In this document: positions 12,709 to 62,987 of the stretch, one piece after another | Position numbering within the stretch: the stretch's first letter is position 1 | Layout: every line of letters starts with the position of its first letter | Source of the DNA: Candidatus Heimdallarchaeum aukensis | GTDB lineage: Archaea; Asgardarchaeota; Heimdallarchaeia; Heimdallarchaeales; Heimdallarchaeaceae | DNA length: 64,000 bases | Direction of reading: 5' to 3' | Assembly: GCA_021513695.1 (NCBI GenBank) | Contig: CP084166.1 | Span: forward strand, 2,048,001-2,112,000 | The notes under the pieces: generated by a model | What the model saw: only the letters and a program-made list of their open reading frames with translations | The model's database searches: none | What the model was told of the DNA's origin: nothing | Made by a program: the position numbers and the translations under genes

Positions 12709-13146
12709 TTAAGTCAATAATTTGCCTAATTTAATAGCTGCTCTTTCTAAATCTAAAAATAGTAAACCAAGTTTTGTGTCTGGTGTAGTGGAAACGGTGA
12801 TAACTGCATTTTCTCCTGCTTGCATTGTAACAATATATCCATTATCTCCTTCAATAAGAATCTTCTTTACTTTTCCTTTTCTTAATTCTGAAACCACACG
12901 TTCCCCTAGAGACAAGCTTGCTGCAGTCATTGCTGAAATGCGAGTTTCATCAATGTTGTCCAACATTAATGAAGCTATGGGTAACCCTTCGACAGAAACA
13001 ACCGCGATATCTAAAATCCCTGGGGACTTGAATCTTAATTCACTTATACAATCAGTTATTTCTTCACTAATTTTGTTTGTTAGAATTCCAAAAGACAATA
13101 TTTTCACTCCTAATTTTTCCTTTGATTGTTCTCCTTTTTTATACAA
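12709..13146 (-). CDS. Roadblock/LC7 (MglB-like) domain protein
   Basis: 145 aa; pattern DIAVVSVEGLPIAS ... AASLSLGERV ... ILIEGDNGYIVTMQAGENAVITV typical of the Roadblock/LC7 fold. Confidence 0.7.
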   Translation of the reverse strand: MYKKGEQSKEKLGVKILSFGILTNKISEEITDCISELRFKSPGILDIAVVSVEGLPIASLMLDNIDETRISAMTAASLSLGERVVSELRKGKVKKILIEGDNGYIVTMQAGENAVITVSTTPDTKLGLLFLDLERAAIKLGKLLT

Positions 13147-13434: not shown

Positions 13435-15549
13435 GTGACTAAGCTTGAAAAACTATTAAGGCCTGAAAGCGTAGTAATTATTGGCGCTTCTTCTGATGAA
13501 AAGAAAGTTGGTTATGCAGCATTAAAAAATATGATTGATTGTGGGTTCAAAGGAAGGTTATATGCTGTTAATCCCAAAGCTGAACGCTATAATTATGAAA
13601 TTTTGGGTGTCAAGTGTTATTCTCGTGTAAGCGATATCGAAGATACAATTGATCTAGCAGTAATTTGCATTCCTGCACGGTTTATTCCTGCAACTATTGA
13701 AGAATTAGGTGGAAAGAAAGTCCCATATGTTGCTGTAATAACTGCTGGTTTTAAAGAAGTTGGAGAAGAAGGAGCAAAACTTGAAAAGGAACTAGTTGAA
13801 CTTGTGAAAAAATACAACATGAGAATGGTAGGGCCGAATATTTTAGGTATAATAGATACTATTGCACCTATAAATGCAAGTTTTGCAGAACAAACTCCAA
13901 TAAGAGGAGATATTGCATTTATATCCCAAAGTGGAGCTCTTTTAACGGGTATTCTAGATTGGAGTAGAGCAGAGGGAATAGGCTTCTCATCTTTTATAAG
14001 TATAGGTAATAAAGCAGATCTGGACGCAACAGACTTTATTGAAGCTTTAGGTGAGGATAAGCATACAAAAGCAATATTGGCTTATTTGGAAAGTATAAAT
14101 CGAGGGGAAGAATTCATTAAGATTTGTTCTGAAGTAACGAGGACAAAACCTGTCCTTATTATTAAATCAGGAAGATCAAAAGCTGGAGCAAAGGCAGCAT
14201 CTTCACACACAGGAAGTATGGCTGGTGCAGATACAACTTATGATGTTGCTTTTGAAAAATGTGGTGTAATAAGAGCTGATGATGCTGAAGAATTGTTTGA
14301 TATGGCATTTTCATTCAGTTGTATGCCTATACCAAAAGGAAATAGAATAGTAATAATTACTAATGCTGGTGGACCTGGAATTCTGGCAACTGATGCTGCC
14401 GAAAGAGAAGGGTTAGAATTAGCAGAGATATCCCCCGAGTTTGAGGCAAAATTAAGAGAATTTCTACCTCCTGCATCAAGTTTCAAAAATCCGATAGATG
14501 CCTTAGGAACAGCACAAGGAGAGGATTATGGACGGATAATAGAACTAGCATGTAAAGAAGAAAATATAGATGGAATAGTCGTTATTTTAACGCCACAAGC
14601 TATGACCGAAGGACAAGAAACTGCAGAAAGAATTGTGGAGATGCATGAAAAATATCCTGAAAAACCTATCATTGCAGTTTTTATAGGGGGAGAATCATTA
14701 GGCCCCGCAATATATTATTTGAAGAAACACAAAATACCCACATTTACACTTCCAGAGAGAGGGGTTGGAGCTATGGCCGCTATGGCAAGATATGCTAAAA
14801 TAAAAAACAGGCCAGAAGATGAACCTATACCTGAAATAGAAGTAGATAAACAGAGAGTAGAAGAAATATTCAAGAAAGTAAGGGCTGAAGGTAGAAAAAC
14901 GTTATATGGCACAGAAGCAAAAGAAGTGGTAAAGGTATATGGAATAACTACTCCTGCGGCTAAATTAGCAAAAACAAGCGATGAAGCTAAACAAATCGCT
15001 AAAGAACTAGGTTTCCCTGTAGTTATGAAGATAACAGGGGAAGGAATTATGCATAAAAGTGACATCGGAGGAGTAAAAGTAGGTATAAAAAATGAAGAAG
15101 AAGTAGAAAAAGCTTTTACTGAAATAATGGAAAATGTAAAGAAACATTATCCAAACGCAGAAAGCCTAATAGAAGTGCAATATATGGCTCCTCTAGGAAG
15201 AGAATTAATAACAGGAATATTACAAGATCCTCAATTTGGTCCACTAGTAATGATAGGATTAGGAGGAATATATACCAACTTCCTTAAAGATGCAGCTTTC
15301 GGTTTAGCTCCACTAAGCTACAAAGAAGCTGAAATTGTGTTAAGAAAAACAAAATCTTACACATTGTTAAAAGGAGTAAGAGGAGAAAAACCTTCAGATA
15401 TAAAGGCAATAGTTGACACTATGGTGAAAATATCACTGCTTGCAAGAGATTTCAAAAACGATATTAAAGAGATGGACGTAAACCCATTCTTCGCTTATGA
15501 AGAAGGAAAAGGAATCTCAGCAGTAGATGTAAAAATAGTACTTAATTAA
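13435..15549 (+). CDS. ADP-forming acetyl-CoA synthetase (NDP-forming acyl-CoA synthetase, fused alpha+beta)
   Basis: 704 aa, GTG start. CoA-binding/succinyl-CoA-synthetase-like N-terminal half (VVIIGASSDEKKVGY, MVGPNILGII) and ATP-grasp C-terminal half (GFPVVMKITGEGIMHKSDIGGVKVGI). Confidence 0.85.
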   Translation: MTKLEKLLRPESVVIIGASSDEKKVGYAALKNMIDCGFKGRLYAVNPKAERYNYEILGVKCYSRVSDIEDTIDLAVICIPARFIPATIEELGGKKVPYVAVITAGFKEVGEEGAKLEKELVELVKKYNMRMVGPNILGIIDTIAPINASFAEQTPIRGDIAFISQSGALLTGILDWSRAEGIGFSSFISIGNKADLDATDFIEALGEDKHTKAILAYLESINRGEEFIKICSEVTRTKPVLIIKSGRSKAGAKAASSHTGSMAGADTTYDVAFEKCGVIRADDAEELFDMAFSFSCMPIPKGNRIVIITNAGGPGILATDAAEREGLELAEISPEFEAKLREFLPPASSFKNPIDALGTAQGEDYGRIIELACKEENIDGIVVILTPQAMTEGQETAERIVEMHEKYPEKPIIAVFIGGESLGPAIYYLKKHKIPTFTLPERGVGAMAAMARYAKIKNRPEDEPIPEIEVDKQRVEEIFKKVRAEGRKTLYGTEAKEVVKVYGITTPAAKLAKTSDEAKQIAKELGFPVVMKITGEGIMHKSDIGGVKVGIKNEEEVEKAFTEIMENVKKHYPNAESLIEVQYMAPLGRELITGILQDPQFGPLVMIGLGGIYTNFLKDAAFGLAPLSYKEAEIVLRKTKSYTLLKGVRGEKPSDIKAIVDTMVKISLLARDFKNDIKEMDVNPFFAYEEGKGISAVDVKIVLN

Positions 15550-15645: not shown

Positions 15646-16335
15646 ATGGTGCTTTTAGAGATTCTTGTACTCCTTGTAGGATATATCTGTGGCTCGATTC
15701 CCGTAGGTTTCTTAATAGGAAAAATAGGTTATAATATTGATGTAAGAAAACATGGTAGTGGAAATATAGGAATGGCAAATGTAATGCGTCTATGCGGAAA
15801 AAAAGCAGGAATAATGACAATGATAGGTGATATGGTAAAAGGAACAATTGCCGTTCTAAGTGGGAGAATATTAATATGGACAAAAAATTTTGAAGGATTA
15901 GGAAAAATAGGACAAGTAGAATTAACAAATGAAGGGTTATTTCTGTCATTAATAGTCTTTACAACAATAATAGGGCATAGTTTTCCAATATGGTTAAAGT
16001 TTAAAGGAGGGAAATCAGCAAGTGTGGGAGGAGGAGCAATATTAGGAATAAACCCAATAGCATTTGTAATAATAATGAGTTTATGGATTGTTATACTTAA
16101 AAAAACTAAATATACTTCACTTTCAAATTTAGTAGCAGGTATGCTCTATCCTCCATTGTTATGGGTGTTCGCGGGAACTGATCCTTTCTTTAACAACAAT
16201 TGGCAAGCAGCAATAGTAGGAGCAATATGTTTGTTGTTTGTAATCTGGAGACATAGGGAAAATGTGTCAAGGTTAATAAAAGGAACAGAAAGAAAAATTG
16301 GACAAAAAGAAAAAATAGAAGAGAAAAAAGACTAG
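15646..16335 (+). CDS. plsY: Glycerol-3-phosphate acyltransferase PlsY family (acyl-phosphate:G3P acyltransferase), bacterial-type
   Basis: YICGSIPVGFLIGK ... HGSGNIGMANVMRLCGKKAG ... GDMVKG matches PlsY signature blocks. Multi-TM. Confidence 0.8.
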   Translation: MVLLEILVLLVGYICGSIPVGFLIGKIGYNIDVRKHGSGNIGMANVMRLCGKKAGIMTMIGDMVKGTIAVLSGRILIWTKNFEGLGKIGQVELTNEGLFLSLIVFTTIIGHSFPIWLKFKGGKSASVGGGAILGINPIAFVIIMSLWIVILKKTKYTSLSNLVAGMLYPPLLWVFAGTDPFFNNNWQAAIVGAICLLFVIWRHRENVSRLIKGTERKIGQKEKIEEKKD

Positions 16336-19797: not shown

Positions 19798-19998
19798 ATA
19801 GAGTTTTTGTCTTGTTGAAATGATAGAATTAAATTGATTTTTAATATTTTTGTTTGTCGTGTCCTCTTATTAATAATGATTTTCTTTATATTCTGTTATT
19901 ATCTTACAGAGATAAATTTAAAAAATAAATGTTAACTCGTTTCTTAATCCATATAGAAAAACTGCTCGTTTCCTACTTTGTTCATTTGCTTAAAATTT

Positions 19999-20084
19999 CG
20001 CGGGGATTGCCGAGCGGTCAAAGGCGCTGGACTTAGGATCCAGTCCTTAGTGGTTCGAGAGTTCGAATCTCTCTCCCCGCACCA
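19999..20084 (+). tRNA. tRNA-Leu(TAG), long variable arm, CCA encoded; integration target
   Basis: Acceptor GCGGGGA/TCCCCGC, anticodon arm CTGGA-CTTAGGA-TCCAG, T-arm GAGAG-TTCGAAT-CTCTC. 3' end duplicated 2.8 kb downstream. Confidence 0.85.
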
Positions 20085-20095
20085 TTTCTTCTTTT
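20057..20095. repeat. 39-bp direct repeat, copy 1 (attL-like): last 28 nt of tRNA-Leu plus 11 nt
   Basis: gagagttcgaatctctctccccgcaccatttcttctttt, identical to 22887-22925. Confidence 0.85.
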
Positions 20096-21080
20096 ATCTT
20101 TATATATTTCCTTTTCCTTTTTTCTTTATGGTTGCTTTTTCTCCTACTTTTTCTGTTATCGATTCTTTCTCTTTTCTTCACGACCCTCAATTTGTTTTTT
20201 TACTTCAGACTTTTATTGATTCTTCCCCTGACTTTTTTTCGTTTCTTTCTCTTCTTTCTTCCTCTTCTCCCTCTTCTCTTTCTTCTTTTGTAAGGGACAT
20301 TTTTTTACTTATTTCTTTTGATGATCCTTTTTCTCTTTCTTCTTCCTCTTTTCATTTTTTTGATTCTCATTTTAATTGGAAATCTTTTCTTTCCTTTTTC
20401 CTTGATTCTTTTTCTTCCCGTAAATTTTCTCTTTGCAATTTTTCTTTATTTTATGCTCATTTTTCTTTTTTGCATTTTTCTATTCCTAATTTTTTATCTG
20501 ATTTTGCATTCTTTTTTTTATCTGATTTAGATTTTAATTTTTTATCTTCTTCCTTTTTCAGTTCTTTTTTCTCTTTTGAATCTTTTTATGATTTTTTCTT
20601 TTCTTATTTTGATTCTTTTTTACCTTCCTATCGTCTCCTTATGCGTCATCGTTTTAATTCTTCTCCTAACCATTTTTTTCCTCCTTTTCTTCCATTCCTT
20701 CGTTCTGAAGAGGTTAGCTCTTATTTTAAGTCCTTTCTGTATATTTGTGGCTTTGATAAATCTGTTTTCGGTTTTGGTTCTTCTCGTGCTAAGGTTGATC
20801 CTCGTCAATTTGCTGAGTCTTTTCAAACTTCTTGGATTAAATTGCACTTTCATTTAGACAAAATGCGTTTTCCTTTTACTCTTTCTTCTACTCGTGTTCT
20901 TTCTCTTTATCATCCTGGTCGTTATGTTTCTTCTGTTAATCCAAGTAATGGTTTTGACGATCTAATTGTTTTTTCTTCCTCCTCTTCCATTCCATCCTCT
21001 CTTTCCTCTTCTCCTTCTTCTCTTTCTTCCTTTTCTTCTCCCGTTTCTCCCTGCTTTACTATTTGTGTTATTGAGCAAAA
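20096..21080 (+). other. About 1-kb polypyrimidine (C+T) tract on + strand
   Basis: Plus strand is overwhelmingly T/C with only scattered purines. Open in several frames on both strands because stop codons need purines (or T on the complement). Confidence 0.8.
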
Positions 21081-21081
21081 A

Positions 21082-22881
21082 ATGAACCATTTAGACGTTA
21101 AGCGTTTAGATAGTCCTTCTTCCTCTTCCGATTTTACGCGTTATCTCTCTTACCTTGCTAAAACCCACTTAAATCCCTTTATTCTTCTTTTACAAGCGTT
21201 TCATTATCCTGAAAAAGATAGACTTAAATTGTCCTCTCTATTGTATGATCGCTCTTTAACTTATTCTAACTCTGTTGGATTAGACTTTTTACGTAAAATC
21301 ACGAATGGTGATTTTCTATCTTCTCTTAAACTAATTGAACCTTCTTTAGATGATCAAACTATCAATAATATTCTTCGGGGTTCTATTATCCAGCACCAGC
21401 TTATTTCTTTGATTAAGTCTGGTTTTTGTTTTAAATTGGCTTTTGTTGATGGTTATTATACCGTTAAAAAGAGGTATCCTGGTGACCTGGTCTCTTCTGT
21501 TATATGTTATTATAATTGTTTAAATGGTTCTTGCGTTGAAATCCATTTTCCTTCGTCGCTATTTGAAATAAGAATAGATTCTAGGGGTCATTTTCTTGTA
21601 CCTCAGTACTCTGAATCTCAGATTTCTTCATATGCAAAGACAGAAAACGAGCTTATGGCTTATCAGGAACTCAACAATCTATTTAACACTTTACGGAGCG
21701 ATATGATTTTTAATGTAAATATTTTGTCTCTCCCTCCTTTTGAAATTGTAAAAAAAGTTAATTTATATCAAAAAAAGATTCTCTTTTTTTTACTTAATTC
21801 TAGACGAATTGCTGATTTAAGTATCTTTAACGATGGTTTTGTTAAATCTTATTTGGAAATTTTTACTTTACCAAAAACAGCTCATCGGATCAAGAGATAC
21901 TTATCCTATATACACGATTCACTTTCAATTTTTCCCTATTCGTTTTATCAGCAGTGGAATGCTCCTTTTGGCGATAGACTAAAAAACATGTTCTCTGGTT
22001 CTTTTAGTCGTGATACCCTTCTTTGTAAGCGTTTTAAAGAAAAGCTTCTTGAGTTTATTTTATCCTCTGATTATGATTTTTCCGAAATGCCTTTAGAATT
22101 TATTGAAACTAAGTTACGTCATTCACCTGATATTCAAATTTTTTTAGATTGCTATTTTAGTCAGTTTGCTCTTTATCCTGACGGTAATTTTTTACGGTTT
22201 AAACATAATAAAATTTCTTTGAAAGCTCTTGCTTTTTGGGATGAGACCAACAATCAATGGTTTTCGCTTAACAAGAAGCGTTTTTACATTTTATTGAACT
22301 TTGAAGATATTTTAGCTAATATAAGTAAGGAAGTGTCTTTTAAAGTAACAAAAAATCTTTTGCTTTTTCCTATTAAATTTAGTTTAAATAAACGCACAGG
22401 GCAGTTATCAGCTCTATTTAATACTGATTTTACTAACACTGAAGTAAACAGAATTTGGGTTGCATATCTTAAAAAATTGAAAGGAATGGATCTTTCCTTT
22501 GAGATTTTGTCCTCTTTTTCTTATGGTCAACGAAATAAGCGGAGTGGAATTGATTTATTCTATAACTGTAACCAAAAAAAGCTTTCAATATTGTTGGCAA
22601 TATTATCAGAAACTATTAAGTTGTGGAGTTTGGTTAAAGAACTTGTCCTTAACGTTGTTTATAAAAAATTAGATTCTGAAATGGATAAAATTATCTTATC
22701 TACCAAAGGAGATAAAATTGTTCTCAATGGCAAGCAATACAAAATGGTCTTACTCAATTACAATGAAAGTAATTCAAGGGTTAGGTGGTCGTTTAAACAC
22801 TACCTATTTCCTGTTGAAGGAACAATTATTGATGATTTTGTTAAAAAATGTTATTCTATTTATACTGATTTATTTTCTTAG
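21082..22881 (+). CDS. Hypothetical protein of the tRNA-Leu-inserted element (conservative start; in-frame extension to ATG 20128 would add an S/F/L-rich low-complexity N-terminus)
   Basis: Normal-complexity ORF (MNHLDVKRLDSP...) ending exactly at the right repeat. No integrase/recombinase motifs seen. Confidence 0.55.
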   Translation: MNHLDVKRLDSPSSSSDFTRYLSYLAKTHLNPFILLLQAFHYPEKDRLKLSSLLYDRSLTYSNSVGLDFLRKITNGDFLSSLKLIEPSLDDQTINNILRGSIIQHQLISLIKSGFCFKLAFVDGYYTVKKRYPGDLVSSVICYYNCLNGSCVEIHFPSSLFEIRIDSRGHFLVPQYSESQISSYAKTENELMAYQELNNLFNTLRSDMIFNVNILSLPPFEIVKKVNLYQKKILFFLLNSRRIADLSIFNDGFVKSYLEIFTLPKTAHRIKRYLSYIHDSLSIFPYSFYQQWNAPFGDRLKNMFSGSFSRDTLLCKRFKEKLLEFILSSDYDFSEMPLEFIETKLRHSPDIQIFLDCYFSQFALYPDGNFLRFKHNKISLKALAFWDETNNQWFSLNKKRFYILLNFEDILANISKEVSFKVTKNLLLFPIKFSLNKRTGQLSALFNTDFTNTEVNRIWVAYLKKLKGMDLSFEILSSFSYGQRNKRSGIDLFYNCNQKKLSILLAILSETIKLWSLVKELVLNVVYKKLDSEMDKIILSTKGDKIVLNGKQYKMVLLNYNESNSRVRWSFKHYLFPVEGTIIDDFVKKCYSIYTDLFS

Positions 22882-31896: not shown

Positions 31897-32835
31897 GTGA
31901 TTGAACTGGATGATAAATTTCAGAAAATAGTTGATGATATCCGAGCTCTTCGTATTCAAGGAGCGACCAATATTGCTATTGAGGGCGTTAAGGCTTTCTC
32001 TTCTTTAGCTGAGCGAATAGATTTTTCTTCTCTCCCTGATTATTTTGAACATCTTAAGAAAGCTAGTATTATTTTATCTACTGCTAGAGATACTGAACCT
32101 GCTTTACGTAATGGTTTACACTTTATTCTTTACGAGTTAGAGCATCAAGCTAGTTCTGTTTCTGAGGCTAAGGAACTTGTTTCTTCTCTTTCCCAGAAAT
32201 ACGTTGAGATGTTGAAGGATTCTAAAAGGAAAGTTATCTCTTATGGAGCTCACCGGATTCGTGATAATAGTGTTATTATGACTCATTGTCATTCTTCCTT
32301 GTCTACTGGTATAATTATTGAGGCTCACCGTCAGGGTAAAAACATTGAGGTTTTTCTTACTGAGACTCGTCCTAAGTGGCAGGGTCGTATTACTGCTAAG
32401 GAGATGGTTGATGCTGAGATTCCTACTACTATGGTTGTTGATAGTGCTATGCGTTACGTAATCAACAGACATAATGTTGATATTGTTATTACCGGTGCTG
32501 ATGCAATTACTAGCCAAGGTACTGTTATTAATAAGATTGGTACTCGTCTTTTAGCTTTGGCTGCTAGGGAAATGGATGTTCCTTTTTATACCGCTATCAA
32601 CTTGTTGAAGTATGATGCTTCCACTACTATTGGCAAGTTATCTGCGATTGAATTTCGCCCTTCTTCTGAAGTTTGGGAAGATCCTCCTAAAGGTTTGAAA
32701 ATTCTTAATCCTGCATTTGAGACAGTTTCTCGTGATCTTATTGATGGTGTAATCACTGAAGCTGGTATTTTTGCTCCTTCCTTGGTTTACATGATTATTA
32801 AAGAGCGTTATCCCTTTATGCTCTTAAACGAATGA
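31897..32835 (+). CDS. Ribose-1,5-bisphosphate isomerase (eIF-2B alpha/beta/delta family, e2b2)
   Basis: eIF-2B-like family blocks (ITHCHSS, VFLTETRP, ITGADAITSQGTVINKIGT). Immediately upstream of form III RuBisCO, as in the archaeal AMP salvage pathway. Confidence 0.8.
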   Translation: MIELDDKFQKIVDDIRALRIQGATNIAIEGVKAFSSLAERIDFSSLPDYFEHLKKASIILSTARDTEPALRNGLHFILYELEHQASSVSEAKELVSSLSQKYVEMLKDSKRKVISYGAHRIRDNSVIMTHCHSSLSTGIIIEAHRQGKNIEVFLTETRPKWQGRITAKEMVDAEIPTTMVVDSAMRYVINRHNVDIVITGADAITSQGTVINKIGTRLLALAAREMDVPFYTAINLLKYDASTTIGKLSAIEFRPSSEVWEDPPKGLKILNPAFETVSRDLIDGVITEAGIFAPSLVYMIIKERYPFMLLNE

Positions 32836-42175: not shown

Positions 42176-44419
42176 ATGACAAAAGAAAAAGAAATTTTAG
42201 AACAGGATGAGAAAAAGAAAAAGTGGAGTTTTCTAGGTTGGGGGTTGCTGTTTCTTCTAATTTGGACAATAGCTCTTATGTTTATTCTCGAGGTAGCTCT
42301 GCATCCTGCAGATAGTATTATAGCGACAATTGTTGCTTATGCTCTAGGATTACTAGGCCTAGGTGTTTTCGCAGGGTTGACTCGAAGTAAATGGAAAGTT
42401 TTGGTAACCTTTCCCTTAGCAATACTAATTATCTTTGGTGCAGGTTACCTGCTACACTTAGTTAACGCTCCTATATATAATCCATTAGCTCCCGTTTCAG
42501 AAAGAGTTTTTGTGATTGTAGATGAACTAGATAGTATTGCTAATACTTCTATAGCTGACAATATTCCCGCAGATCTATTGAATAATATGGAATCTATCAA
42601 ACAATATGCTGATTTTGCATTTGTAGTTGATTTAATTATTAGTTTACCGATATTTATCCTTGGTACGTTATCTGTGACGTGGATAGTTCAGATATTTACT
42701 CAGAAACCTAAATGGTGGGTGATTTTCTCTGCGTTTTTTGCTTTAATATTTTTCATGATAGGAATGATTATGACTCCCTTTGTTCACTTAGTTATTGCGG
42801 GCGTTGTTGACCTAGGAACTAATATGAGCATCGGAGCTTTATATATGGTAAATGGACTTTCATACCTACAAGATTTACAGAATGCAGATCAAGCAGATAT
42901 TAATGAAGCAGTAGCTAATCTGAATTTAGCTTCAGAATGGTTTCAAAAAGGAGGAGAAGATATAAAGGTATTCCTAGGCGCGCTTTCTATGTCACCTTAT
43001 TTAGGAGATGCAGCCGATGACTTTAATCACCTGTTCCAAGCAGCATTCATACTCTTAGGTGGAGCAGGAACGTTTGTTAATGGGTCATATCAACTATTCA
43101 AAGGATTTGATCTGATTTCAAAAGCTCTGAATACAAGCTCTGGGTCATTAACTATGCAAGATGATCAAGTTAAACAAGCAATAGACGACGATTTGTTTAA
43201 TCAAGGTATTGACTTTATTAATGAAGGTCTTGAACTATTTGATAATAGTAGCTATGTTTTTGATGATGCTTTAACTGAAATAAAACAAGTTGATTGGCAA
43301 GAAATAAAAACTGAACTTCACGAATTGCCGATAGAAGGGACTGAAGAAATAGATTCAACTTTGGACCAGATGGAAGGTTATCTCAGCATCTTTGAAAATG
43401 CAACAGGATTGATTGATGTACTAATATCAAAACCAACATTTGCTAATGGTAGTCAAAGTAATTATGCAACATTAATTCATTTCTTCTTAGGGGCTTATAA
43501 TATAATGAAAGCTCAAGAAATTATAGGTGATGAAACTAACTTTGCAGGAACAGAAGTTTACTTTAACAGGGCTGGTGAACACTTTAATGTTACATATAAT
43601 GCATTACAAACAAGAACTGTTGCTCAGTTAATACATTCAGACACCCCAATATTAAATGGGACTGTTGCTTTCATTGTTGATATGACCGGATTGGCCGCTG
43701 ATTTAAGTTTCTTCGGTGGAGATATGGGGCCAACACTTGTTGGATTAAATAGCACACTTTCAGTTTTGTCTAATGGATATGAAAATGTAACTGATTATGA
43801 CTCAATTAGAGCAGATATTTCTGATAGTATAACAGAATTAGATAACCTAAAGGATACTGCTCATTCGATAGATAATAGGATTTTAGGAATTCAAGAAAAC
43901 GCAACAGCAAACATTTATGGAGAGTTCAGTGAAACAGCAAGTGATTTTGCATCTAATTTCCAGAAATTTAATATTACTTTGAACCTCGAAAATGCTTATT
44001 ATATTGCCCAATCATTCTATTATCTATTTGGTGCTATGAAAGATCTTAAGGACATTAAAGGATATATTGAAACTGGACAAACTGCTTTTGATAATTCAGA
44101 TTATTTGACCGCCTATAATAACTTCTTAGCCGCTAATACATCATTAGATTCATGCATCGATCAGATGTGGAATGCAAGTTACTACTTTAACCAAACTATA
44201 GGCAATGGAATGGGACAGTTAAGTAGTTCTGGTGATGCAATTGCACTAATTTACTTCTCTCTAGTATCTATACAAACTGACATAAACGTTATAACTGGAA
44301 TCGCAGGGGGTGGTAGCCCAACTGAAAGCGAAATTACTGAAGTAAATAATCGCTTAGACCACATTAACACAGTATTAGTGAATGTAAACAATGAACTAGC
44401 ACAAGTAAAAGGACAATAA
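42176..44419 (+). CDS. Large membrane-anchored extracytoplasmic protein rich in N-x-S/T sequons
   Basis: 747 aa. About 5 N-terminal TM helices, then a about 500-aa hydrophilic domain with over 14 N-x-S/T sequons (NGS, NSS, NAT, NVT, NGT, NST, NIT, NTS, NAS, NQT). Confidence 0.6.
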   Translation: MTKEKEILEQDEKKKKWSFLGWGLLFLLIWTIALMFILEVALHPADSIIATIVAYALGLLGLGVFAGLTRSKWKVLVTFPLAILIIFGAGYLLHLVNAPIYNPLAPVSERVFVIVDELDSIANTSIADNIPADLLNNMESIKQYADFAFVVDLIISLPIFILGTLSVTWIVQIFTQKPKWWVIFSAFFALIFFMIGMIMTPFVHLVIAGVVDLGTNMSIGALYMVNGLSYLQDLQNADQADINEAVANLNLASEWFQKGGEDIKVFLGALSMSPYLGDAADDFNHLFQAAFILLGGAGTFVNGSYQLFKGFDLISKALNTSSGSLTMQDDQVKQAIDDDLFNQGIDFINEGLELFDNSSYVFDDALTEIKQVDWQEIKTELHELPIEGTEEIDSTLDQMEGYLSIFENATGLIDVLISKPTFANGSQSNYATLIHFFLGAYNIMKAQEIIGDETNFAGTEVYFNRAGEHFNVTYNALQTRTVAQLIHSDTPILNGTVAFIVDMTGLAADLSFFGGDMGPTLVGLNSTLSVLSNGYENVTDYDSIRADISDSITELDNLKDTAHSIDNRILGIQENATANIYGEFSETASDFASNFQKFNITLNLENAYYIAQSFYYLFGAMKDLKDIKGYIETGQTAFDNSDYLTAYNNFLAANTSLDSCIDQMWNASYYFNQTIGNGMGQLSSSGDAIALIYFSLVSIQTDINVITGIAGGGSPTESEITEVNNRLDHINTVLVNVNNELAQVKGQ

Positions 44420-46279: not shown

Positions 46280-46318
46280 CGATAGTGATAGTGCTGATAG
46301 TGATAGTGATAGTGATAG
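46280..46318. repeat. TGATAG hexamer array (CGATAG TGATAG tgc TGATAG x4)
   Basis: gctcgatagtgatagtgctgatagtgatagtgatagtgatagcac, about 150 bp downstream (3') of the minus-strand HTH gene. Confidence 0.8.
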
Positions 46319-46467
46319 CACTTTTTAAACCAAAATCGAAATGTTTTGAGAAAAAAGTTATTTAAATTAATTTAAGGTTAGTCCTAAAAAAACATACTGA
46401 CAGCTTTTTCGATTATCAACCAAGGATAGAATTTTCTAAATGGGGTGTTTTCTTTTTTTATGGTTTT

Positions 46468-47064
46468 TTATTCTGTATTGCTTTCGCCCATGGCCGCACT
46501 TAAAATTTCTACTTCCTGAGCTACGGACTTGATTTTAGAAGCGATAACTCTCTTCTTTTCTATTTCTTCTTGATCTTTAAGCTCTGGGAGATACTTTCCT
46601 ATAGCCGCAGTTGTTCGTATTCTTACACTATAAGGAAAAATGGTTTTATTACGACTTTTAAGTTCAGCAAGGATGCCCACGGTCCAACGTTCATTCTCTT
46701 CATCTTTGTGAATGTGAAATTTTGTTACATCAACATCACACAGGTTAAGAATTGATGAAAGAAAAGTTTCTATATCCTCATTATTAAATTGACTAATATC
46801 TAAAATCTCTCCTTTTTCAAATTCTTCTTCATGAAAATTGTATATCTGTTTTTTATCATGTATCTGTGAAAAGCGTTTATCTCTCTCGGTTCTTTTTTTA
46901 GCTGGTTGCTTTTTTCCTGTTTCATACTTATTTCTGTTACGAGCGACCCAAACACTAACAGCTTTTCCTGAACCAAGACCTATAATGGGAGCGATTTCTG
47001 AGTATGTATATCCTTGTTTTTTTAGCTCTTCTATCTTATTCCATCGCTCTTGACCTTGTAACAT
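46468..47064 (-). CDS. Small HTH-domain protein (putative DNA-binding regulator; N-terminus resembles transposase/terminase-small-subunit-type HTH)
   Basis: N-terminal ELKKQGYTYSEIAPIIGLGSGKAVSVWVARN helix-turn-helix; charged C-terminal region. Flanked on both sides by TGATAG motifs. Confidence 0.55.
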   Translation of the reverse strand: MLQGQERWNKIEELKKQGYTYSEIAPIIGLGSGKAVSVWVARNRNKYETGKKQPAKKRTERDKRFSQIHDKKQIYNFHEEEFEKGEILDISQFNNEDIETFLSSILNLCDVDVTKFHIHKDEENERWTVGILAELKSRNKTIFPYSVRIRTTAAIGKYLPELKDQEEIEKKRVIASKIKSVAQEVEILSAAMGESNTE

Positions 47065-47111: not shown

Positions 47112-47136
47112 CTATCATTTTTTGATAGTGCTATCA
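47112..47136. promoter_or_regulatory. Operator-like inverted TGATAG half-sites upstream of the HTH gene: CTATCA-TTTTT-TGATAG-TG-CTATCA
   Basis: About 50-70 bp upstream of the start codon at 47064 (minus strand); same hexamer as the arrays at 22968 and 46280. Confidence 0.5.
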
Positions 47137-56671: not shown

Positions 56672-58393
56672 TTGATCGACTTGAAAGCAATTGCAATCGG
56701 ATTGAAAGTATTAGGTTTTATCTTAATATTTACCACGGCCTTTGTGCCTATCTACAAGATTTATTATGATGCTACTCCACTGAGTGAGCATGACAAGTAT
56801 ACACAAGATTCACTTTTAATTAGTATATTTGGTTCGAGAGTTGAATATAATACTATAGGATATGATTACAATAACAATATCACGAAGGTGTATACGGAGT
56901 TACAAATTCCTAGTAATATAGTCCTACTGTCTGCAGCGCTATGGTTTTTGTTATTCTTTAGTGTTCTCGCTGCTGCTTTAGGTCAAGTATTTCAGTCAGG
57001 AGGAGTGAAAAAGAGAGGTAATATGGCAGACATAATGGCTGCATTATTCCTGTTAGTCTCTTTGATTGTTCTCATAATTGCTATTAATCGGACTTTGAAC
57101 TTCACTGCGAGTGAATACAAAGCGGTATTGTCTGGACAGACTGCTACTCCTTCATCTGCAGTAACTTTCAATCCCAATGATAGTAATCCTTCTTATTTCT
57201 TAATTAGCTTACGTGGAAAAATGACCTTCATGTTTTATATTTATATTATTGGTGTTCTTCTCACTCTAACAGGTTTATTCTTACCTGTTGATTGGACAAA
57301 ACCAAGTGAGGGAACATTCAGTAAAAAATTCGCTAGTTCTAAACCCATTTCCTTTATTAAACAAATAGCTACAATGAGGTTGACCATCTATATTCTTCGC
57401 CGACTTCTTACACTCATCCCCTTGTTCATTGCCATTATGGTTATGACCTTTGTAATGGTTTCTGGGTTGGGAGACCCTGTCGCATTGTTACTCTTGGGTA
57501 AGATTAACGTTACCGAGGAAGACAAAATTAACCTTACTAGATCTCTTGGATTGGATCAACCTGTTTATGCTCGATTTGTTATTTGGTTCTATAACTTCCT
57601 TCATGGTAATATGGGTGAAAGTTATCGTGGTGGTCGTTCTATTAACACCATGATTGGTGAACTTGTTTGGGAAACACTAAAACTTCAGCTTGCTTCTTTT
57701 GTTTTAGCTTTACTCATAGCTATTCCTCTAGGTGTGGTCGCAGCTAAGAATCAGAATACTTGGATTGATTCAACTGCAAGCACTATCGCTCTTCTTGGTT
57801 TGTCCATGCCTATTTTCGTTTTTGGTTTAATGCTTATTTATATCTTCAGTGGATATGGTTTAGGCTGGCTACCAGCAGCTAAAGCACATTCCATTCCAAC
57901 TCCTGTTGTTGATTGGTCCGCACTCCGGGCAGGAGACTGGGGTACGTGGTGGTCCTCGCTGATGGCGCGTACGGGAGATTCAATAATTCACATGATCCTT
58001 CCAACTACTGCTTTGACCTTCGCTTCTCTTGCTACCTATACTCGTTTAGTCAGAACAACAATGTTAGAAGTTCTTCGCCAAGATTATATTTTAGCAGCTC
58101 GAGCTAATGGTCTTTCTGAACGAGTTATTACTTGGAAACATGCTTGGAGAAACGTTCTTATTCCTGTAGTTACTTATGTTGGTCTATTTTTAGCTTCGGC
58201 TTTAGCTGGTGCTCCTATTACAGAAACGCTTTTCACTTGGCCTGGTTTAGGTTATAGGTATGTTGTTGCTGTGGGTCTTTTGGATTTTCCGATGATTTTG
58301 GGTACAACTGCTATTCTTACTATTTTGATCCTTTTAGGAAATTTAGTTACTGATATTGTTTACGTCGCTGTTGACCCGAGAATTGAATTGTAG
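56672..58393 (+). CDS. ABC transporter permease, OppB/DppB family, with about 230-aa N-terminal membrane extension (alternative internal start at 57374)
   Basis: C-terminal 340 aa is a canonical OppB (RLTIYILRRLLTLIP ... EAA-loop region YILAARANGLSERVI). N-terminal part has 5 extra hydrophobic segments. Confidence 0.8.
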   Translation: MIDLKAIAIGLKVLGFILIFTTAFVPIYKIYYDATPLSEHDKYTQDSLLISIFGSRVEYNTIGYDYNNNITKVYTELQIPSNIVLLSAALWFLLFFSVLAAALGQVFQSGGVKKRGNMADIMAALFLLVSLIVLIIAINRTLNFTASEYKAVLSGQTATPSSAVTFNPNDSNPSYFLISLRGKMTFMFYIYIIGVLLTLTGLFLPVDWTKPSEGTFSKKFASSKPISFIKQIATMRLTIYILRRLLTLIPLFIAIMVMTFVMVSGLGDPVALLLLGKINVTEEDKINLTRSLGLDQPVYARFVIWFYNFLHGNMGESYRGGRSINTMIGELVWETLKLQLASFVLALLIAIPLGVVAAKNQNTWIDSTASTIALLGLSMPIFVFGLMLIYIFSGYGLGWLPAAKAHSIPTPVVDWSALRAGDWGTWWSSLMARTGDSIIHMILPTTALTFASLATYTRLVRTTMLEVLRQDYILAARANGLSERVITWKHAWRNVLIPVVTYVGLFLASALAGAPITETLFTWPGLGYRYVVAVGLLDFPMILGTTAILTILILLGNLVTDIVYVAVDPRIEL

Positions 58394-58403
58394 GTGAAAA
58401 AAA

Positions 58404-59636
58404 ATGTTACGAGTGGCTCGTGAAAAAAGAAAAACAGTGTTTGAAAATAACGTTAAAGCTTATATGGAAGAGCATCGCCTTCCTCCATCAATGTCTTGGG
58501 TAGCAAAATTAGCTATTGCTTGGAGACATTATAGTGTTGATATAGCTGTACAGAGTTTGGCTATCTTTACTTTTCTCCTTATCTTTTTATCAATAACCTG
58601 GGATACTAGTTTTGCCCGGATTCTCATATGGTCTCTAATTGTTGCAGGAGTCTGGGGTGTAGTTAGATTTTCTATTCGTCTCTATAAACAAACTGCTATG
58701 CAAAAAGAACTTATTATTGCCAAAGATGGAACGTTAAGAGAACGTAGTCCTTCTAATTGGAGTCTTATCTGGAGACGATATAAGAAAAACAAGGTTTCTC
58801 TTTTGTCTGGAAGTGTGGTCGCAATCGTTACCTTAATTGCTATAATTTATCCTATTCTTTTACCCTTTAACCCTGTACAACAAGTTCCTCTATTTGATGC
58901 TTGGAATGGCGGTGGTTCAATCGCCCGACCTAATTTGAAGTATCCTGCTGGTACAGATATTCTCGGTAGAGATGAATTCTCAAGAGTACTTGCTGGTTCT
59001 GAGGTTTCTTTAACTGTTGGAGTATTTTCAACTGTCTTATCAGTTTTTATTGGTGTGTCCTTAGGAGCTATCGCTGGATATTATCGAGGTTGGTCAGAAG
59101 AAATTATTATGAGAATCACAGATATGTTCCTATCCCTACCTTTCTTAGTTATTGCTATTCTTGCTGTAGCCTTTATTAGGAGAGGAAGGATAGCTTTCTT
59201 GAAACAAATTCCTCAGTCTATGGTTATTATTCTTGTACTGGGAATATTTGGTTGGGGTGGACTGTGCAGGTTAGTAACTGCAAATACAAAGCAGATCTAT
59301 AGGTTAGATTATGTTAATGCTGCACGAGTATTAGGGGCCAGTAATCGTCGAATAATTCTATTGCATATTTTACCTAATATTTTAGCTCCTATAATTGTTA
59401 TAGCAACATTGTCTGTTGCAGGAGGAATATTGTCAGAAGCAGGATTGACTTTCCTAGGTTTGGGTAGTCCAACAACTATTTCGTGGGGACAAATGGTAAA
59501 TGAAGCCCAAACAGTTTTCAGATCCAATCCTGAACTCGCATTCATACCTGGTTTTGCAATATTTTTTGTTGTATTAGCTTTTAACTTACTAGGTGATGCC
59601 CTGAGGGACGCAATGGATCCAAGACTAAAGGAGTAA
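58404..59636 (+). CDS. ABC transporter permease, OppC/DppC family, with N-terminal extension
   Basis: PAGTDILGRDEFSRV N-terminal OppC motif, conserved permease core; about 110 extra N-terminal residues with 2 TM segments. Confidence 0.85.
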   Translation: MLRVAREKRKTVFENNVKAYMEEHRLPPSMSWVAKLAIAWRHYSVDIAVQSLAIFTFLLIFLSITWDTSFARILIWSLIVAGVWGVVRFSIRLYKQTAMQKELIIAKDGTLRERSPSNWSLIWRRYKKNKVSLLSGSVVAIVTLIAIIYPILLPFNPVQQVPLFDAWNGGGSIARPNLKYPAGTDILGRDEFSRVLAGSEVSLTVGVFSTVLSVFIGVSLGAIAGYYRGWSEEIIMRITDMFLSLPFLVIAILAVAFIRRGRIAFLKQIPQSMVIILVLGIFGWGGLCRLVTANTKQIYRLDYVNAARVLGASNRRIILLHILPNILAPIIVIATLSVAGGILSEAGLTFLGLGSPTTISWGQMVNEAQTVFRSNPELAFIPGFAIFFVVLAFNLLGDALRDAMDPRLKE

Positions 59637-60694
59637 TGAGAATAATGAAGAAAATAGAACCTATACTAGATGTGAAAAATCTTTACACCCGCTTTTATAC
59701 AGAAAGTGGTGTAGTAGAAGCACTTGATGGTGTTAACTTTGATGTAGGTTACGGAGAACCTGTTGGAATTGTAGGTGAAAGCGGGTGCGGAAAAACTGTA
59801 ACAAGTCATAGTGTGCTAAGAATTTTACCTAAAAATGGACGAATACTACAACCTCCAAGTGAAATATACTATAAAGGAGTTAATCTCTTAGACTTAACAG
59901 ATGAACAGATGCGACATGTTAGAGGAAAAGAAGCTGCAATGATATTTCAAGATCCGATGACTAGTCTTAATCCCATTTTCAAAATAAGTGACCAGATGAT
60001 TGAAGTTATCCAGTTACACAGAAAGGTAAACAAAAATGAAGCAAGGGATATAGCTATTGAGATGATGGAAGCAGTAGGTATCCCTGATTCCGCGGAAAGA
60101 ATTGACAATTATCCTCATCAATTCAGTGGAGGAATGAGACAAAGAATTCTAATTGCTAGAGCATTGGCATTACAACCAAGTTTGTTAATTGCTGATGAGC
60201 CTACTACAGCATTAGATGTAACCATTCAAGCTCAAGTTCTTGAAATAATCAAAGAAATGCAAAAGCAATTTGGTTTAGCTCTGATGCTAATCACTCATAA
60301 TCTAGGTGTGGTAGCTGAAATAACAAAAAGAGTACATATATTCTACGGTGGAAGAGTAGTGGAATCAGGTCCAACAGAGGAAATATTCGTTAATCCTTTC
60401 CACCCATATACAAAAGCACTTTTTGATAGTATCCCCTCACTAGAACAAGATAAAACAAGATTAGCAACAATACCTGGAACAGTACCTCAACTTATTAACC
60501 CACCGCAAGGTTGTAGATTTCATCCAAGATGTAAATATGCAACAGAAATATGTCGAAGGGCTCGTCCTCCAGATATGTGGGTAACAGAAACAAGACGTGT
60601 ACAGTGTCACCACTGGGAAGAATTAGATCTTACAATCGATAAAGAAAAAGTGAAAGAAGTGAGAAAAACAGCTGTTTCCGTGGAAGGTGTGTAA
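59636..60694 (+). CDS. ABC transporter ATP-binding protein, OppD/DppD-like
   Basis: Walker A GESGCGKT, signature FSGGMRQR, Walker B LLIADEPTTALD, C-terminal oligopeptide-transporter extension with Cys residues. Confidence 0.9.
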   Translation: MRIMKKIEPILDVKNLYTRFYTESGVVEALDGVNFDVGYGEPVGIVGESGCGKTVTSHSVLRILPKNGRILQPPSEIYYKGVNLLDLTDEQMRHVRGKEAAMIFQDPMTSLNPIFKISDQMIEVIQLHRKVNKNEARDIAIEMMEAVGIPDSAERIDNYPHQFSGGMRQRILIARALALQPSLLIADEPTTALDVTIQAQVLEIIKEMQKQFGLALMLITHNLGVVAEITKRVHIFYGGRVVESGPTEEIFVNPFHPYTKALFDSIPSLEQDKTRLATIPGTVPQLINPPQGCRFHPRCKYATEICRRARPPDMWVTETRRVQCHHWEELDLTIDKEKVKEVRKTAVSVEGV

Positions 60695-60696
60695 AA

Positions 60697-61749
60697 GTGG
60701 CAAGCATGAGATCATTTGAAGAATACGAAGTAATAGACACAGACTTGTTTTCAGCATGGGACCCAAATAAATTCCCTATTCTTGAAACAAAAAATTTGAA
60801 GAAATGGTTTCCAGTAGCTGAACAATCATTACTCTATTCAAAAACAGTAAACTTCATAAAAGCAGTAGATGGAGTAAATCTCTTTTTGAATAAAGGTGAA
60901 ACACTTGGACTAGTAGGAGAAAGTGGGTGTGGAAAGAGTACAACATCAAAAACAATAATTAAATTGGAAGAACCAACAGAAGGGTCTGTTTACTTTAAAG
61001 GAATAGATATGTTTCAACCAATGACAAGAGTTGAAGAGTTAGCAATAAAAAGACAGATACAAATGGTTTTCCAGGACCCATATGCAAGCCTAAACCCGAG
61101 AAGAATGGTTTTAGATATTATAAAAGAACCATTCGATATACATTTCGCTGATATGCCTTATGAAGAAAAAGAAGCAAGAGTACTGGAAATTCTAAGTAAA
61201 GTTGGTCTTGAAGATTATCATGCATTAAGATATCCACATGAATTCTCAGGAGGCCAAAGACAAAGAATAGGAATAGCAAGAGCTTTAGCTATGAATCCAG
61301 AAGTCATTCTGTTAGACGAACCAGTATCTGCATTAGATGTATCAGTTCAAGCTCAAATACTAAATCTATTACATGACTTGCAAATAGATTTCAAATTAAC
61401 ATATATGTTTATAGCACACGATCTAAGTGTAATTAAGCATGTATCAGATAGAGTAGCAGTGATGTATCTAGGAAAAATAATGGAAATGGCACCAACAGGA
61501 GAATTGTTCAGAAACACAGCTCATCCATATACAATAGCTTTATTGTCTGCTATACCGAGACCAGATCCAAGAATAAAAATGGATAGAATAATATTAGAAG
61601 GAGACCCACCAAGTCCAATTAATACTCCAAGCGGTTGTCCTTTTCATCCTCGTTGTTGGAAAGCTAAAGAAGTTTGTTCTCAAAAACAGCCTCCTTTGGA
61701 AGAAGTTAAACCTAATCATTATGTCAGTTGTTGGTTCCCTGAAATATAA
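60697..61749 (+). CDS. ABC transporter ATP-binding protein, OppF/DppF-like
   Basis: Walker A GESGCGKST, signature FSGGQRQR, Walker B ILLDEPVSALD. Confidence 0.9.
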   Translation: MASMRSFEEYEVIDTDLFSAWDPNKFPILETKNLKKWFPVAEQSLLYSKTVNFIKAVDGVNLFLNKGETLGLVGESGCGKSTTSKTIIKLEEPTEGSVYFKGIDMFQPMTRVEELAIKRQIQMVFQDPYASLNPRRMVLDIIKEPFDIHFADMPYEEKEARVLEILSKVGLEDYHALRYPHEFSGGQRQRIGIARALAMNPEVILLDEPVSALDVSVQAQILNLLHDLQIDFKLTYMFIAHDLSVIKHVSDRVAVMYLGKIMEMAPTGELFRNTAHPYTIALLSAIPRPDPRIKMDRIILEGDPPSPINTPSGCPFHPRCWKAKEVCSQKQPPLEEVKPNHYVSCWFPEI

Positions 61750-61867
61750 AACTGCAGAGAAATTAATCATTTTTTCTTTTTTTAATTTTAAAATTCATTC
61801 TTTTTTTTAAAAAATGATCTGATATTATTTTATACTACCGCTAAAAATAAAAATGATAAGTATCAAC

Positions 61868-61880
61868 TTATCATTGATAG
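61868..61880. promoter_or_regulatory. Palindrome TTATCA-T-TGATAG (core TATCATTGATA) 4-16 bp upstream of the GTPase start codon
   Basis: Same GATAG half-site as the arrays at 22968, 46280 and 47112. Confidence 0.4.
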
Positions 61881-61883
61881 ATT

Positions 61884-62822
61884 GTGAATGACAAAGTACT
61901 AAAGGTAGGAAAAGAATCAGTACCCGTAACTATACTTGGGTTAGAAAATGCTGGAAAAACCACTCTAATTGAGAGGTTAAAAACAGGTTCTTTTGTAGAA
62001 GATACAACTCCTACATTAGGTGTAAGCTTTGAATCTTTTAAAGTAGGTGATACTTTATTCAAGATTTTTGATGTTGGGGGACAATTTGTTTATCGAAAAC
62101 AGTTTTGGGTAAATTACGCATCAAATAGCTATGGTATTATCTTTGTATTTGATGCCTCCGATAAAGAAAGAACAACAGAAGGAAAAGAGTGGTTCTGGTA
62201 TCTAATAGACAATATTGAAATTGAAGACCGAATAGTTGTAGCTTTTTTTGCTAATAAAGCCGATTTAGAATGCATGTCAATAGAAGAAATTATTGAAGCG
62301 CTTGAACTCCCAAGGATGAGTGAGCACTCAAAGATTAGTTTCCAAATATTTAAGACAAGTAATAAAACAGGCGAAGGAATAGACGCTGCATTAGATTGGT
62401 TTACAAACAAACTAAAACAAATAGGAAAAGAAAAAATAGTCCATCCAAAAGGTTTGATTATAAGTACAACACTAGGCAGAGTGCAGTTATTCTTAGATCT
62501 TGAAGGATTATCACAACAAATATCGCAAATCAGAGAATTATTAGCTCAAATATTTAAATATGAATCAGCTACGCTCAAAGAAGAAAAATTATCTACTATT
62601 TCAAACGAGAATATAAAACTCGTATGTCACGAAAGAAGTGACGTGATAATAACAATGATCATAAATCCAGAAGAATCTCATGTAGAAGCTCAAAGATATA
62701 TTGAGCAAGTGTATGAATACTTAGAAAAGAAAACAGCAAAAACGAAAGATGAGCTTATAAAAGGAATATTAAACTTACTAAATATTAAAGATGAAAGTAA
62801 AGTTAAGATAATTACAATGTAA
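61884..62822 (+). CDS. Arf-family-like small GTPase fused to a C-terminal Roadblock/longin-like domain
   Basis: GTG start. G1 GLENAGKTTL, switch I TPTLG, G3 DVGGQ (Arf/Sar-type WDVGGQ-like), G4 NKAD, G5 TSNKTGEG. About 130-aa C-terminal extension with beta-beta-alpha-beta-beta-alpha periodicity (LIISTTLGRVQLFLDLEG ... IKLVCHERSDVIITMII). Confidence 0.75.
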   Translation: MNDKVLKVGKESVPVTILGLENAGKTTLIERLKTGSFVEDTTPTLGVSFESFKVGDTLFKIFDVGGQFVYRKQFWVNYASNSYGIIFVFDASDKERTTEGKEWFWYLIDNIEIEDRIVVAFFANKADLECMSIEEIIEALELPRMSEHSKISFQIFKTSNKTGEGIDAALDWFTNKLKQIGKEKIVHPKGLIISTTLGRVQLFLDLEGLSQQISQIRELLAQIFKYESATLKEEKLSTISNENIKLVCHERSDVIITMIINPEESHVEAQRYIEQVYEYLEKKTAKTKDELIKGILNLLNIKDESKVKIITM

Positions 62823-62910: not shown

Positions 62911-62987
62911 TGGAGCCCCGGGGGGGACTTGAACCCCCGACCATTTGATTACAAGTCAAACGCTCTACCGAGCTAAGCCACCGAGGC
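62911..62987 (-). tRNA. tRNA-Thr(TGT), CCA encoded
   Basis: Acceptor GCCTCGG/CCGGGGC (one G-U), anticodon arm TTTGA-CTTGTAA-TCAAA, T-arm GGGGG-TTCAAGT-CCCCC, discriminator T. Confidence 0.8.

Follow-up and report, generated by a model that had tools for sequence, protein, structure and literature searches.

An Arf-type small GTPase of Candidatus Heimdallarchaeum aukensis predicted to carry a C-terminal longin domain

A 64,000-nucleotide stretch of the Candidatus Heimdallarchaeum aukensis genome (GenBank assembly GCA_021513695.1, contig CP084166.1, positions 2,048,001 to 2,112,000, hereafter the window) was analysed with a focus on a gene for a two-domain small GTPase of 312 residues that lies close to its 3' end. 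Sequence profiles identified the first domain of this protein as an Arf-type G domain and structure prediction identified the second as a longin domain. The identity of these two domains, the lack of Arf proteins' N-terminal amphipathic helix and the gene neighbourhoods of the family are the established part of the analysis. On this basis we read the protein as a soluble two-domain switch whose longin domain would serve as an oligomerising or docking platform in a sensory or signalling GTPase complex, and we give this reading a probability of roughly 0.55. A free-standing recruiter of vesicle coats is less likely. The coordinates of the features discussed are collected in Table 1.

The open reading frame (ORF) is a real gene under selection. 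Its product matched a GenBank entry from Ca. Heimdallarchaeum aukensis at 100% (UJG40047.1, "ADP-ribosylation factor-like protein"), and the GTG start is backed by the aligned starts of orthologues. A search of 5.8 billion proteins returned 24 full-length homologues of 308-328 residues, and those that carry an organism name all belong to Heimdallarchaeota or Heimdallarchaeaceae. The alignment of these 24 homologues contained 61 invariant columns, and as these were spread over both the G and the longin halves of the protein they indicate purifying selection on both domains. In one distant relative (P0036, 318 residues) the order was reversed, with an N-terminal extension of about 140 residues followed by an Arf-like G domain. 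By its sequence, this relative resembles the N-terminal longin-Arf proteins reported previously (PMC11914678).

To the Pfam Arf profile (PF00025) the protein matched over residues 9-176 with an E value of 1.4e-35 and a score of 122.7 bits, against a curated cut-off of 22.3 bits. The competing Pfam profiles scored 49.8 bits (Ras), 48.4 bits (Roc) and 33.9 bits (SRPRB), and Gtr1_RagA (PF04670) gave no Pfam match to the protein at E <= 1. Among the sequences in the PDB, the protein came closest to Arf1, Arl1 and HodArfR1 (8oul), an ArfR protein from Asgard archaea that took fourth place with 95.9 bits as compared to 97.9 bits for the best match. By these sequence comparisons the G domain is of the Arf type and not of the MglA, Ras or Rag type. 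Within the Arf family it would be of the Asgard ArfR/AArf type, where the term ArfR-like rests on the best matches. A preliminary description of this DNA had placed five G boxes in the N-terminal part of the protein and had taken DVGGQ for an Arf-type signature; the sequence, the alignment with Arf1 and the invariant columns bear out the former, and the profile scores and PDB matches agree with the latter.

The individual motifs are consistent with this assignment. The G1 motif GLENAGKT has Leu at its second position and Glu, not Asp, at its third, a position at which the relatives carry D, N or E. Members of the Arf family have been recognised by a G1 motif of the form G-L-D-x-x-G-K-T and by Gly as the third residue of the G3 motif D-x-G-G-Q (PMC11914678), and the combination of GLENAGKT and DVGGQ in the window protein agrees with this description. 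The interswitch is of Arf length, as HMMER aligned the region from PT(L/I)G to DVGGQ with Arf1 without gaps and the distance from Thr44 to Asp63 is 19 residues; switch II has one residue more than that of Arf1. Because all of the nucleotide-binding and catalytic motifs are present together with an interswitch of Arf length, the protein should bind and hydrolyse GTP.

Members of the family differ in the residue after DVGG (codon 67, 62082-62084). The window protein has Gln here, as do the three relatives nearest to it (57-78% identity), and all remaining relatives (46-53% identical) have His, as in Sar1. An affinity to Sar1 on account of DVGGH was considered and rejected, as Sar1 was absent from the top 60 sequence matches of a His-type member (P0008); the best PDB sequence match of that member was HodArfR1.

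An N-terminal amphipathic helix that is freed on GTP binding has been called the defining feature of Arf proteins (10.1101/2024.02.28.582541). This helix is absent from the AlphaFold2 (AF2) model of the window protein, in which about 12 residues precede beta-1 and none of them is helical. The protein begins at about residue 6 of Arf1 and could be aligned from about Arf1 residue 13. Neither a lipidation motif at the C terminus nor a transmembrane segment is seen in its sequence.

The last helix of the G domain is followed by a linker of about 6 residues and a C-terminal extension of about 125-130 residues in which strands and helices alternate, the periodicity that had been proposed earlier for an extension of about 130 residues and that AF2 and DSSP now support. 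The elements assigned by DSSP were strands at 190-195 and 200-205, a helix at 209-228, strands at 236-240, 245-251 and 254-260, and helices at 266-282 and 288-298. The full-length model had a predicted local distance difference test score (pLDDT) of 82.7 and a predicted template modelling score (pTM) of 0.84, and a model of the domain on its own (pLDDT 84.1, pTM 0.80) had the same secondary structure. Both models follow the order beta-beta-alpha-beta-beta-beta-alpha-alpha, which is that of longin domains (E-E-H-E-E-E-H-H). The closest structural matches of the domain were the longins TRAPPC4 and the mu and sigma subunits of AP complexes, and Roadblock structures scored lower (MK-D1 Roadblock2 9.2, LAMTOR3 9.2, C-terminal domain of RagC 8.8, LokiRagO 8.5 and MglC 8.3). 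Roadblock/LC7 domains are built in the order alpha1-beta1-beta2-alpha2-beta3-beta4-beta5. The C-terminal domain has neither this topology nor a match to Robl_LC7. Of the earlier "Roadblock/longin" assignment, the superfamily and the longin topology are upheld and the Roadblock part is dropped.

None of this was apparent from sequence searches. Pfam and NCBIfam applied to the full protein returned nothing over residues ~185-312, and when the C-terminal parts of 14 family members were searched with Pfam at E <= 10, none matched Longin, Sybindin, Sedlin_N, Clat_adaptor_s or Roadblock. A sub-threshold Pfam match to YusW, seen in 7 of the 14 sequences, was treated as noise. A profile of the C-terminal domain found nothing significant among the PDB sequences and recovered only 5 clusters, all from its own family, among 1.84 billion representative proteins. 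Judged by the models, the C-terminal domain is a longin that is invisible to sequence profiles.

The gene neighbourhoods of the relatives point to a function in signalling. One conserved cluster was present in every locus retrieved from relatives 48-54% identical to the window protein (L001, L004-L008 and L011-L016). With the family of the window GTPase termed A and its Arf-like two-domain paralogues termed B, C and D, the cluster consists of a 299-residue paralogue of family B, usually a PAS protein of about 435 residues, the family A gene and a TPR protein of about 900 residues, in this order (for example L008 2625-10798, GCA_029856355.1). The cluster was also recorded at L009 and L010. Paralogues of family C (308-312 residues) and family D (about 317 residues), and PAS histidine kinases or response regulators, were often nearby. 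Pfam Arf was the best match for the G domains of all four families. The PAS and TPR neighbours suggest a signalling GTPase complex and not Arf-style membrane recruitment. The cluster with its PAS and TPR proteins was not found described in the literature consulted, but it may have been published and we cannot claim it as new.

Some further observations were made on the cluster proteins. By a scan of the genome collection and a protein search, the TPR family is limited to Heimdall lineages. In the TPR protein, lysine-rich repeats of about 29 residues each make up the N-terminal third. A diverged TPR homologue was seen in a metagenome-assembled genome (MAG) of Heimdallarchaeaceae, with no family A gene adjoining it. 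Aligning the paralogue families together gave an evidently incorrect result, which was discarded.

Small GTPases pair with longin and Roadblock domains as their standard dimerising platforms. By analogy, the longin domain of the window protein would let it join a homo- or hetero-oligomeric complex of GTPases and may dock partner proteins, as the C-terminal domains of Rag/Gtr GTPases do; judging by the neighbours in relatives, the protein would act in sensing or regulation and not in Arf-style membrane recruitment. The selection on both domains, the lack of a helix in residues 1-12 and the high pTM of the full-length model, which suggests that the G and longin domains pack in a fixed way, also count in favour of this reading. 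In the Lokiarchaeon MK-D1, an operon encodes a pair of Rag-like GTPases for which AF2 predicted a heterodimer formed through the Roadblock domains (PMC10933270), and LokiRagO, a two-domain Loki GTPase whose structure has been solved, is a homotetramer (PDB 8yl2). Several results weigh against a signalling complex of this kind. The two-domain model could not be superposed as one body on Rag or on LokiRagO, and only the G domain could be superposed, over 161 residues. The C-terminal domains of families A-D had no detectable similarity to each other (hhalign probabilities <= 0.5%, from shallow alignments), and it is a reading of the sequences that suggests a longin fold shared by the tails of B-D. 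The 64-kb window contains no second G domain and no homologue of the paralogue, PAS or TPR partners. Finally, neither the genome-collection scan nor the protein search returned a TPR homologue named Heimdallarchaeum, and the logic of the cluster may for this reason not apply to Ca. H. aukensis.

The main rival is a self-regulating switch, which we consider unlikely, in which the longin domain would work in cis on the G domain to which it is joined, as a platform for GTPase-activating protein (GAP) or guanine nucleotide exchange factor (GEF) function or as a sensor of the GTP state. This would be akin to MglB acting on MglA, or to the SRX domain of SR-alpha acting on SR-beta, within a single polypeptide. 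The AF2 model is compact and its high pTM (0.84) suggests a fixed packing of the G and longin domains, hence an intramolecular interface. The longin domain also carries conserved polar residues (K189, D205, E250, S265, Q270 and R271) and directly follows the C-terminal helix, which in Arf proteins borders the pocket of the N-terminal helix and the interswitch tip (10.1101/2024.02.28.582541). A movement of the interswitch might by this route reach the longin domain. In a variant of this idea the longin domain would lie near the interswitch pocket, where an Arf protein would have its amphipathic helix, and might read the nucleotide state from there. From the general architecture of small GTPases, however, the short linker exits from the face opposite the switch and nucleotide face, making it sterically difficult for the longin domain to reach the switches. 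Switch I and switch II were modelled with low confidence (pLDDT 53-61), as expected if nothing packs there.

A role as an Arf-like membrane-trafficking switch is improbable. Here the GTP form would bind membranes and recruit coat-like or tethering effectors, with the longin domain acting like the longin subunits of the AP, COPI and TRAPP complexes. The Arf-type G domain with its Arf-length interswitch and the structural closeness of the longin domain to TRAPPC4 and AP mu/sigma agree with such a role, as does the membrane binding of some Asgard ArfR/AArf proteins in yeast (10.1101/2024.02.28.582541; PMC11914678). In yeast, however, HodArfR1 and GerdArfR1 no longer bound membranes once their N-terminal helix had been deleted (10.1101/2024.02.28.582541), and the window protein has neither this amphipathic helix nor a C-terminal lipidation motif or transmembrane segment. 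The neighbours in relatives are of the PAS/TPR signalling type and not coat or SNARE homologues, and Asgard Arf proteins with extra domains are, according to the authors who described them, probably not acting on membranes (PMC11914678). The eukaryote-like trafficking switch put forward in the preliminary description is unlikely in the Arf sense on account of the missing helix. It is more doubtful still that the protein is a true Rag/Gtr orthologue, which would have a C-terminal Roadblock domain, form obligate heterodimers and function in nutrient signalling. The length of the protein and the placing of an alpha/beta domain behind the G domain agree with this, Foldseek aligned 305 columns with the S. 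pombe Gtr chain 8fw5_D (E = 1.2e-12), relatives have adjoining paralogues and similar Asgard proteins have been called 'Rag-like' (PMC10933270; 10.1101/2020.10.19.343400), but Gtr1_RagA gave no match and the profile and structure scores already point outside the RagGtr clade.

The signalling-complex switch that we favour could be one part of a larger system. It is conceivable, though we would not expect it, that Heimdallarchaeia possess an undescribed Rag/Ragulator-like signalling module of multiple GTPases with Arf-type and not Rag-type G domains, of which the window gene is a solitary subunit copy. Up to four paralogues with an Arf-type GTPase domain would make up such a module, each with a fast-evolving C-terminal alpha/beta domain (a longin was modelled for family A only), and their genes would lie together with those of a PAS protein and a TPR scaffold of about 900 residues beside two-component sensors. 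As the output that the interswitch drives, the longin domain would then stand in for the amphipathic helix of Arf proteins, and the window gene would be a derived copy of one subunit that stands by itself.

Table 1. Location of the GTPase gene, its domains and motifs, and other features of the window (positions are those of the window; residues are those of the GTPase)
Feature	Coordinates	Strand	Remarks
Two-domain GTPase coding sequence	61884..62822	+	GTG start, TAA stop, 312 residues
Arf-family G domain, residues ~13-183	61920..62432	+	beta-1 through C-terminal helix 166-183
G1 / P-loop GLENAGKT, residues 19-26	61938..61961	+	G19, A23, G24, K25 and T26 invariant
G2 / switch I Thr44 in TTPTLG	62013..62015	+	invariant; aligned with PTIG of Arf1
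G3 DVGGQ, residues 63-67, predicted catalytic Gln67	62070..62084	+	from sequence and Arf1 alignment
G4 NKAD, residues 124-127, guanine-specificity motif	62253..62264	+	N124, K125 and D127 invariant
G5 TSN, residues 158-160	62355..62363	+	Ser159 invariant
Predicted longin-fold domain, residues ~188-312	62445..62819	+	begins at invariant PKG motif
Palindrome TATCATTGATA (TATCA-T-TGATA)	61869..61879	+	5+5 around one central base; 4 nucleotides before GTG
Perfect 10+10-nucleotide inverted repeat AATGATAAGT-ATCA-ACTTATCATT	61852..61875	+	overlaps palindrome 61869-61879
TTTATA, candidate archaeal TATA box	61829..61834	+	50-55 nucleotides upstream of start; conserved in sister species
ABC transporter permeases	56672-59636		Opp/Dpp type
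ABC transporter ATPases	59636-61749		Opp/Dpp type
tRNA-Thr	62911-62987	opposite to GTPase gene	just downstream of GTPase gene
Stand-alone Roadblock/LC7 ORF	12709-13146	-	Robl_LC7 E = 5.9e-19

In the window, which has a G+C content of 32.7%, the GTPase gene is preceded by the genes of an Opp/Dpp-type (oligopeptide-family) ABC transporter across a gap of 134 nucleotides. The same gene layout was found in H. endolithica and in one related MAG. An orthologue of 70% identity is likewise solitary and lies in another neighbourhood, with Opp genes still present about 5 kb upstream. Just upstream of that orthologue's gene, on the opposite strand, is a tRNA-like stretch (L002 7715-7825, minus strand) that, as read by eye, contains an insertion, possibly an intron. 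For the TTTATA element a promoter role would be consistent with the usual layout of archaeal promoters. In Ca. H. aukensis the GTPase gene appears to have left the cluster and to possess a separate promoter from which it is transcribed singly. A second ORF of 312 residues in the window (31897-32835) was considered as a further copy and rejected, as it encodes an IF-2B family protein.

The stand-alone Roadblock protein that had been reported elsewhere in the window was confirmed by its profile match. Its ORF lies 49 kb from the GTPase gene with no GTPase near it, and is flanked by genes for an Eco57I-type DNA methylase (10327-12684) and an ADP-forming acetyl-CoA synthetase (13435-15549). Among other genes of the window, the ORF at 15646-16335 (plus strand) matched PF02660, the family of PlsY-type glycerol-3-phosphate acyltransferases, with E = 1.2e-48, a bacterial-type membrane-lipid enzyme in an Asgard archaeon. 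A giant ORF of 2795 residues (254-8641, plus strand) contains no Pfam domain at E <= 1e-4, and the same was true of the ORFs at 19978-22881 (967 residues) and 42176-44419 (747 residues). The listed start of the 967-residue ORF overlaps a tRNA-Leu (20000-20084), suggesting that the true start is probably further downstream.

The preliminary description had also drawn attention to a palindrome just before the GTG start and to a GATAG half-site that it shares with arrays near the ORF at 46468-47064. The palindrome is present but its frequency gives no indication of a meaningful site, and it is kept only in very close relatives. Within the window TATCANTGATA occurs once as compared to 0.19 expected copies, and 15 of 100 shuffled sequences held at least one copy. 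The looser pattern TATCA-N(0-8)-TGATA was found 2 times against 1.56 expected, and perfect 10+10-nucleotide inverted repeats numbered 2 as compared to 2.3 +/- 1.9 in Markov simulations. The palindrome is therefore no more than chance would give within the window. The proposed link to the arrays comes down to a shared 5-mer, GATAG, of which the window holds 130 occurrences on both strands.

The other TATCA-N(0-8)-TGATA of the window lies 49 nucleotides upstream of the ORF at 46468-47064 (minus strand), which we regard as a coincidence; this palindromic cluster (47112-47135) reads ACTATCA-TTTTT-TGATAGTGCTATCAC. A tandem GATAGT array with six copies of GATAG is located at 46281-46319, 3' of two converging genes.

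It is doubtful that the palindrome or inverted repeat is a transcription-factor operator, possibly for the product of 46468-47064, or a translational hairpin in the 5' untranslated region. The inverted repeat comes after TTTATA, the candidate TATA box, and before the start codon, where an operator or leader hairpin could plausibly be situated, and as RNA it is predicted to fold into a hairpin of -10.9 kcal/mol (z = -2.83). The last ~40 nucleotides before the start have a single difference in H. endolithica and are identical in a third assembly, and the sole other copy of TATCA-N(0-8)-TGATA (N5) precedes the ORF at 46468-47064 with the GATAGT array close by. However, none of the counts exceeds chance, and conservation between such close genomes is expected regardless. 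H. endolithica has two uncompensated changes in the left arm of the inverted repeat, and both palindrome and inverted repeat are absent upstream of the 70% orthologue. The ORF at 46468-47064 gave no Pfam or NCBIfam match and its helix-turn-helix is putative.

Arf-family GTPases and longin domains are at the core of membrane traffic and nutrient signalling in eukaryotes, and among known archaea the Heimdallarchaeia are most closely related to eukaryotes. A covalent pair of Arf and longin domains in this lineage shows that both modules were already cooperating before the origin of eukaryotes. The PAS sensors, TPR scaffold and paralogues around the gene in relatives suggest that the original job was signalling and not vesicle budding. 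The architecture as such is already known, as fusions of Asgard GTPases with longin domains have been on record since 2016 and the protein itself is in GenBank as Arf-like. The additions made here are modest and consist of the recognition of the longin domain by structure, the assignment of the G domain to Arf/ArfR and not Rag, the missing helix and the conserved cluster in relatives.

Comparison with known systems places the protein among several arrangements of a small GTPase with a domain of the longin/Roadblock superfamily. In MglA-MglB the two are separate proteins, and Roadblock domains of the MglB/MglC type were a poorer match to the C-terminal domain than longins were. SR-beta and the SRX domain of SR-alpha also belong to two proteins, of which SR-beta is anchored by a transmembrane segment, whereas the window protein is a single soluble polypeptide; SRX was a weaker structural match to the C-terminal domain than the longins of TRAPP and AP. 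The longins of TRAPPC4/synbindin, AP mu/sigma, sedlin, Sec22b and VAMP7 have 6-16% identity to the domain, with no relationship at the sequence level, and none of them is joined to a G domain. Eukaryotic Rag/Gtr proteins are closer in layout, having about 300 residues in which an alpha/beta domain from the same superfamily comes after the G domain. They occur as paralogue pairs and act as dimeric signalling GTPases docked on scaffolds, and the relatives of the window gene have an adjoining paralogue. The window protein differs from them in not being Gtr1_RagA, in having a longin and not a Roadblock domain, and in an arrangement that cannot be superposed.

Fusions of the same kind, in which an Arf-annotated or Rag-like GTPase is joined to a domain of the longin/Roadblock superfamily, have been published for Asgard archaea and are found only there (PMC4917890; 10.1101/2020.10.19.343400; PMC10933270; PMC11914678). 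PMC4917890 attributes to Klinger et al. 2016 longin-Arf-like and Roadblock-Ras/Rag-like GTPase fusions of Lokiarchaeum, and Tran et al. described Arf-annotated, Rag-like GTPases with longin domains, Roadblock domains or both (PMC10933270). Some of the published paralogues share an operon, and dimerisation by way of the fused domain is predicted for them. The published reports deal mostly with Lokiarchaeia, with N-terminal longins on Asgard Arf proteins or with C-terminal Roadblock domains, whereas the window protein belongs to a narrow Heimdall family with a predicted C-terminal longin that is hidden from sequence methods. Family A was not found described in the Asgard GTPase literature consulted. 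Asgard ArfR/AArf proteins were defined in two studies of 2024-25, which mention members with extra domains (10.1101/2024.02.28.582541; PMC11914678). Like the window protein, HodArfR1 (8OUK/8OUL) and GerdArfR1 (8OUM/8OUN) have an Arf-family G domain from Heimdallarchaeia, and these proteins are the best or near-best PDB match of family A in both sequence and structure. They have in common with it GL[D/E]xxGKT, DxGGQ and the Arf-length interswitch. Those ArfRs that have been characterised have 160-220 residues, a single domain and an N-terminal amphipathic helix needed for membrane binding, whereas the window protein is without this helix and has in addition a C-terminal domain of 125 residues that is predicted to be a longin.

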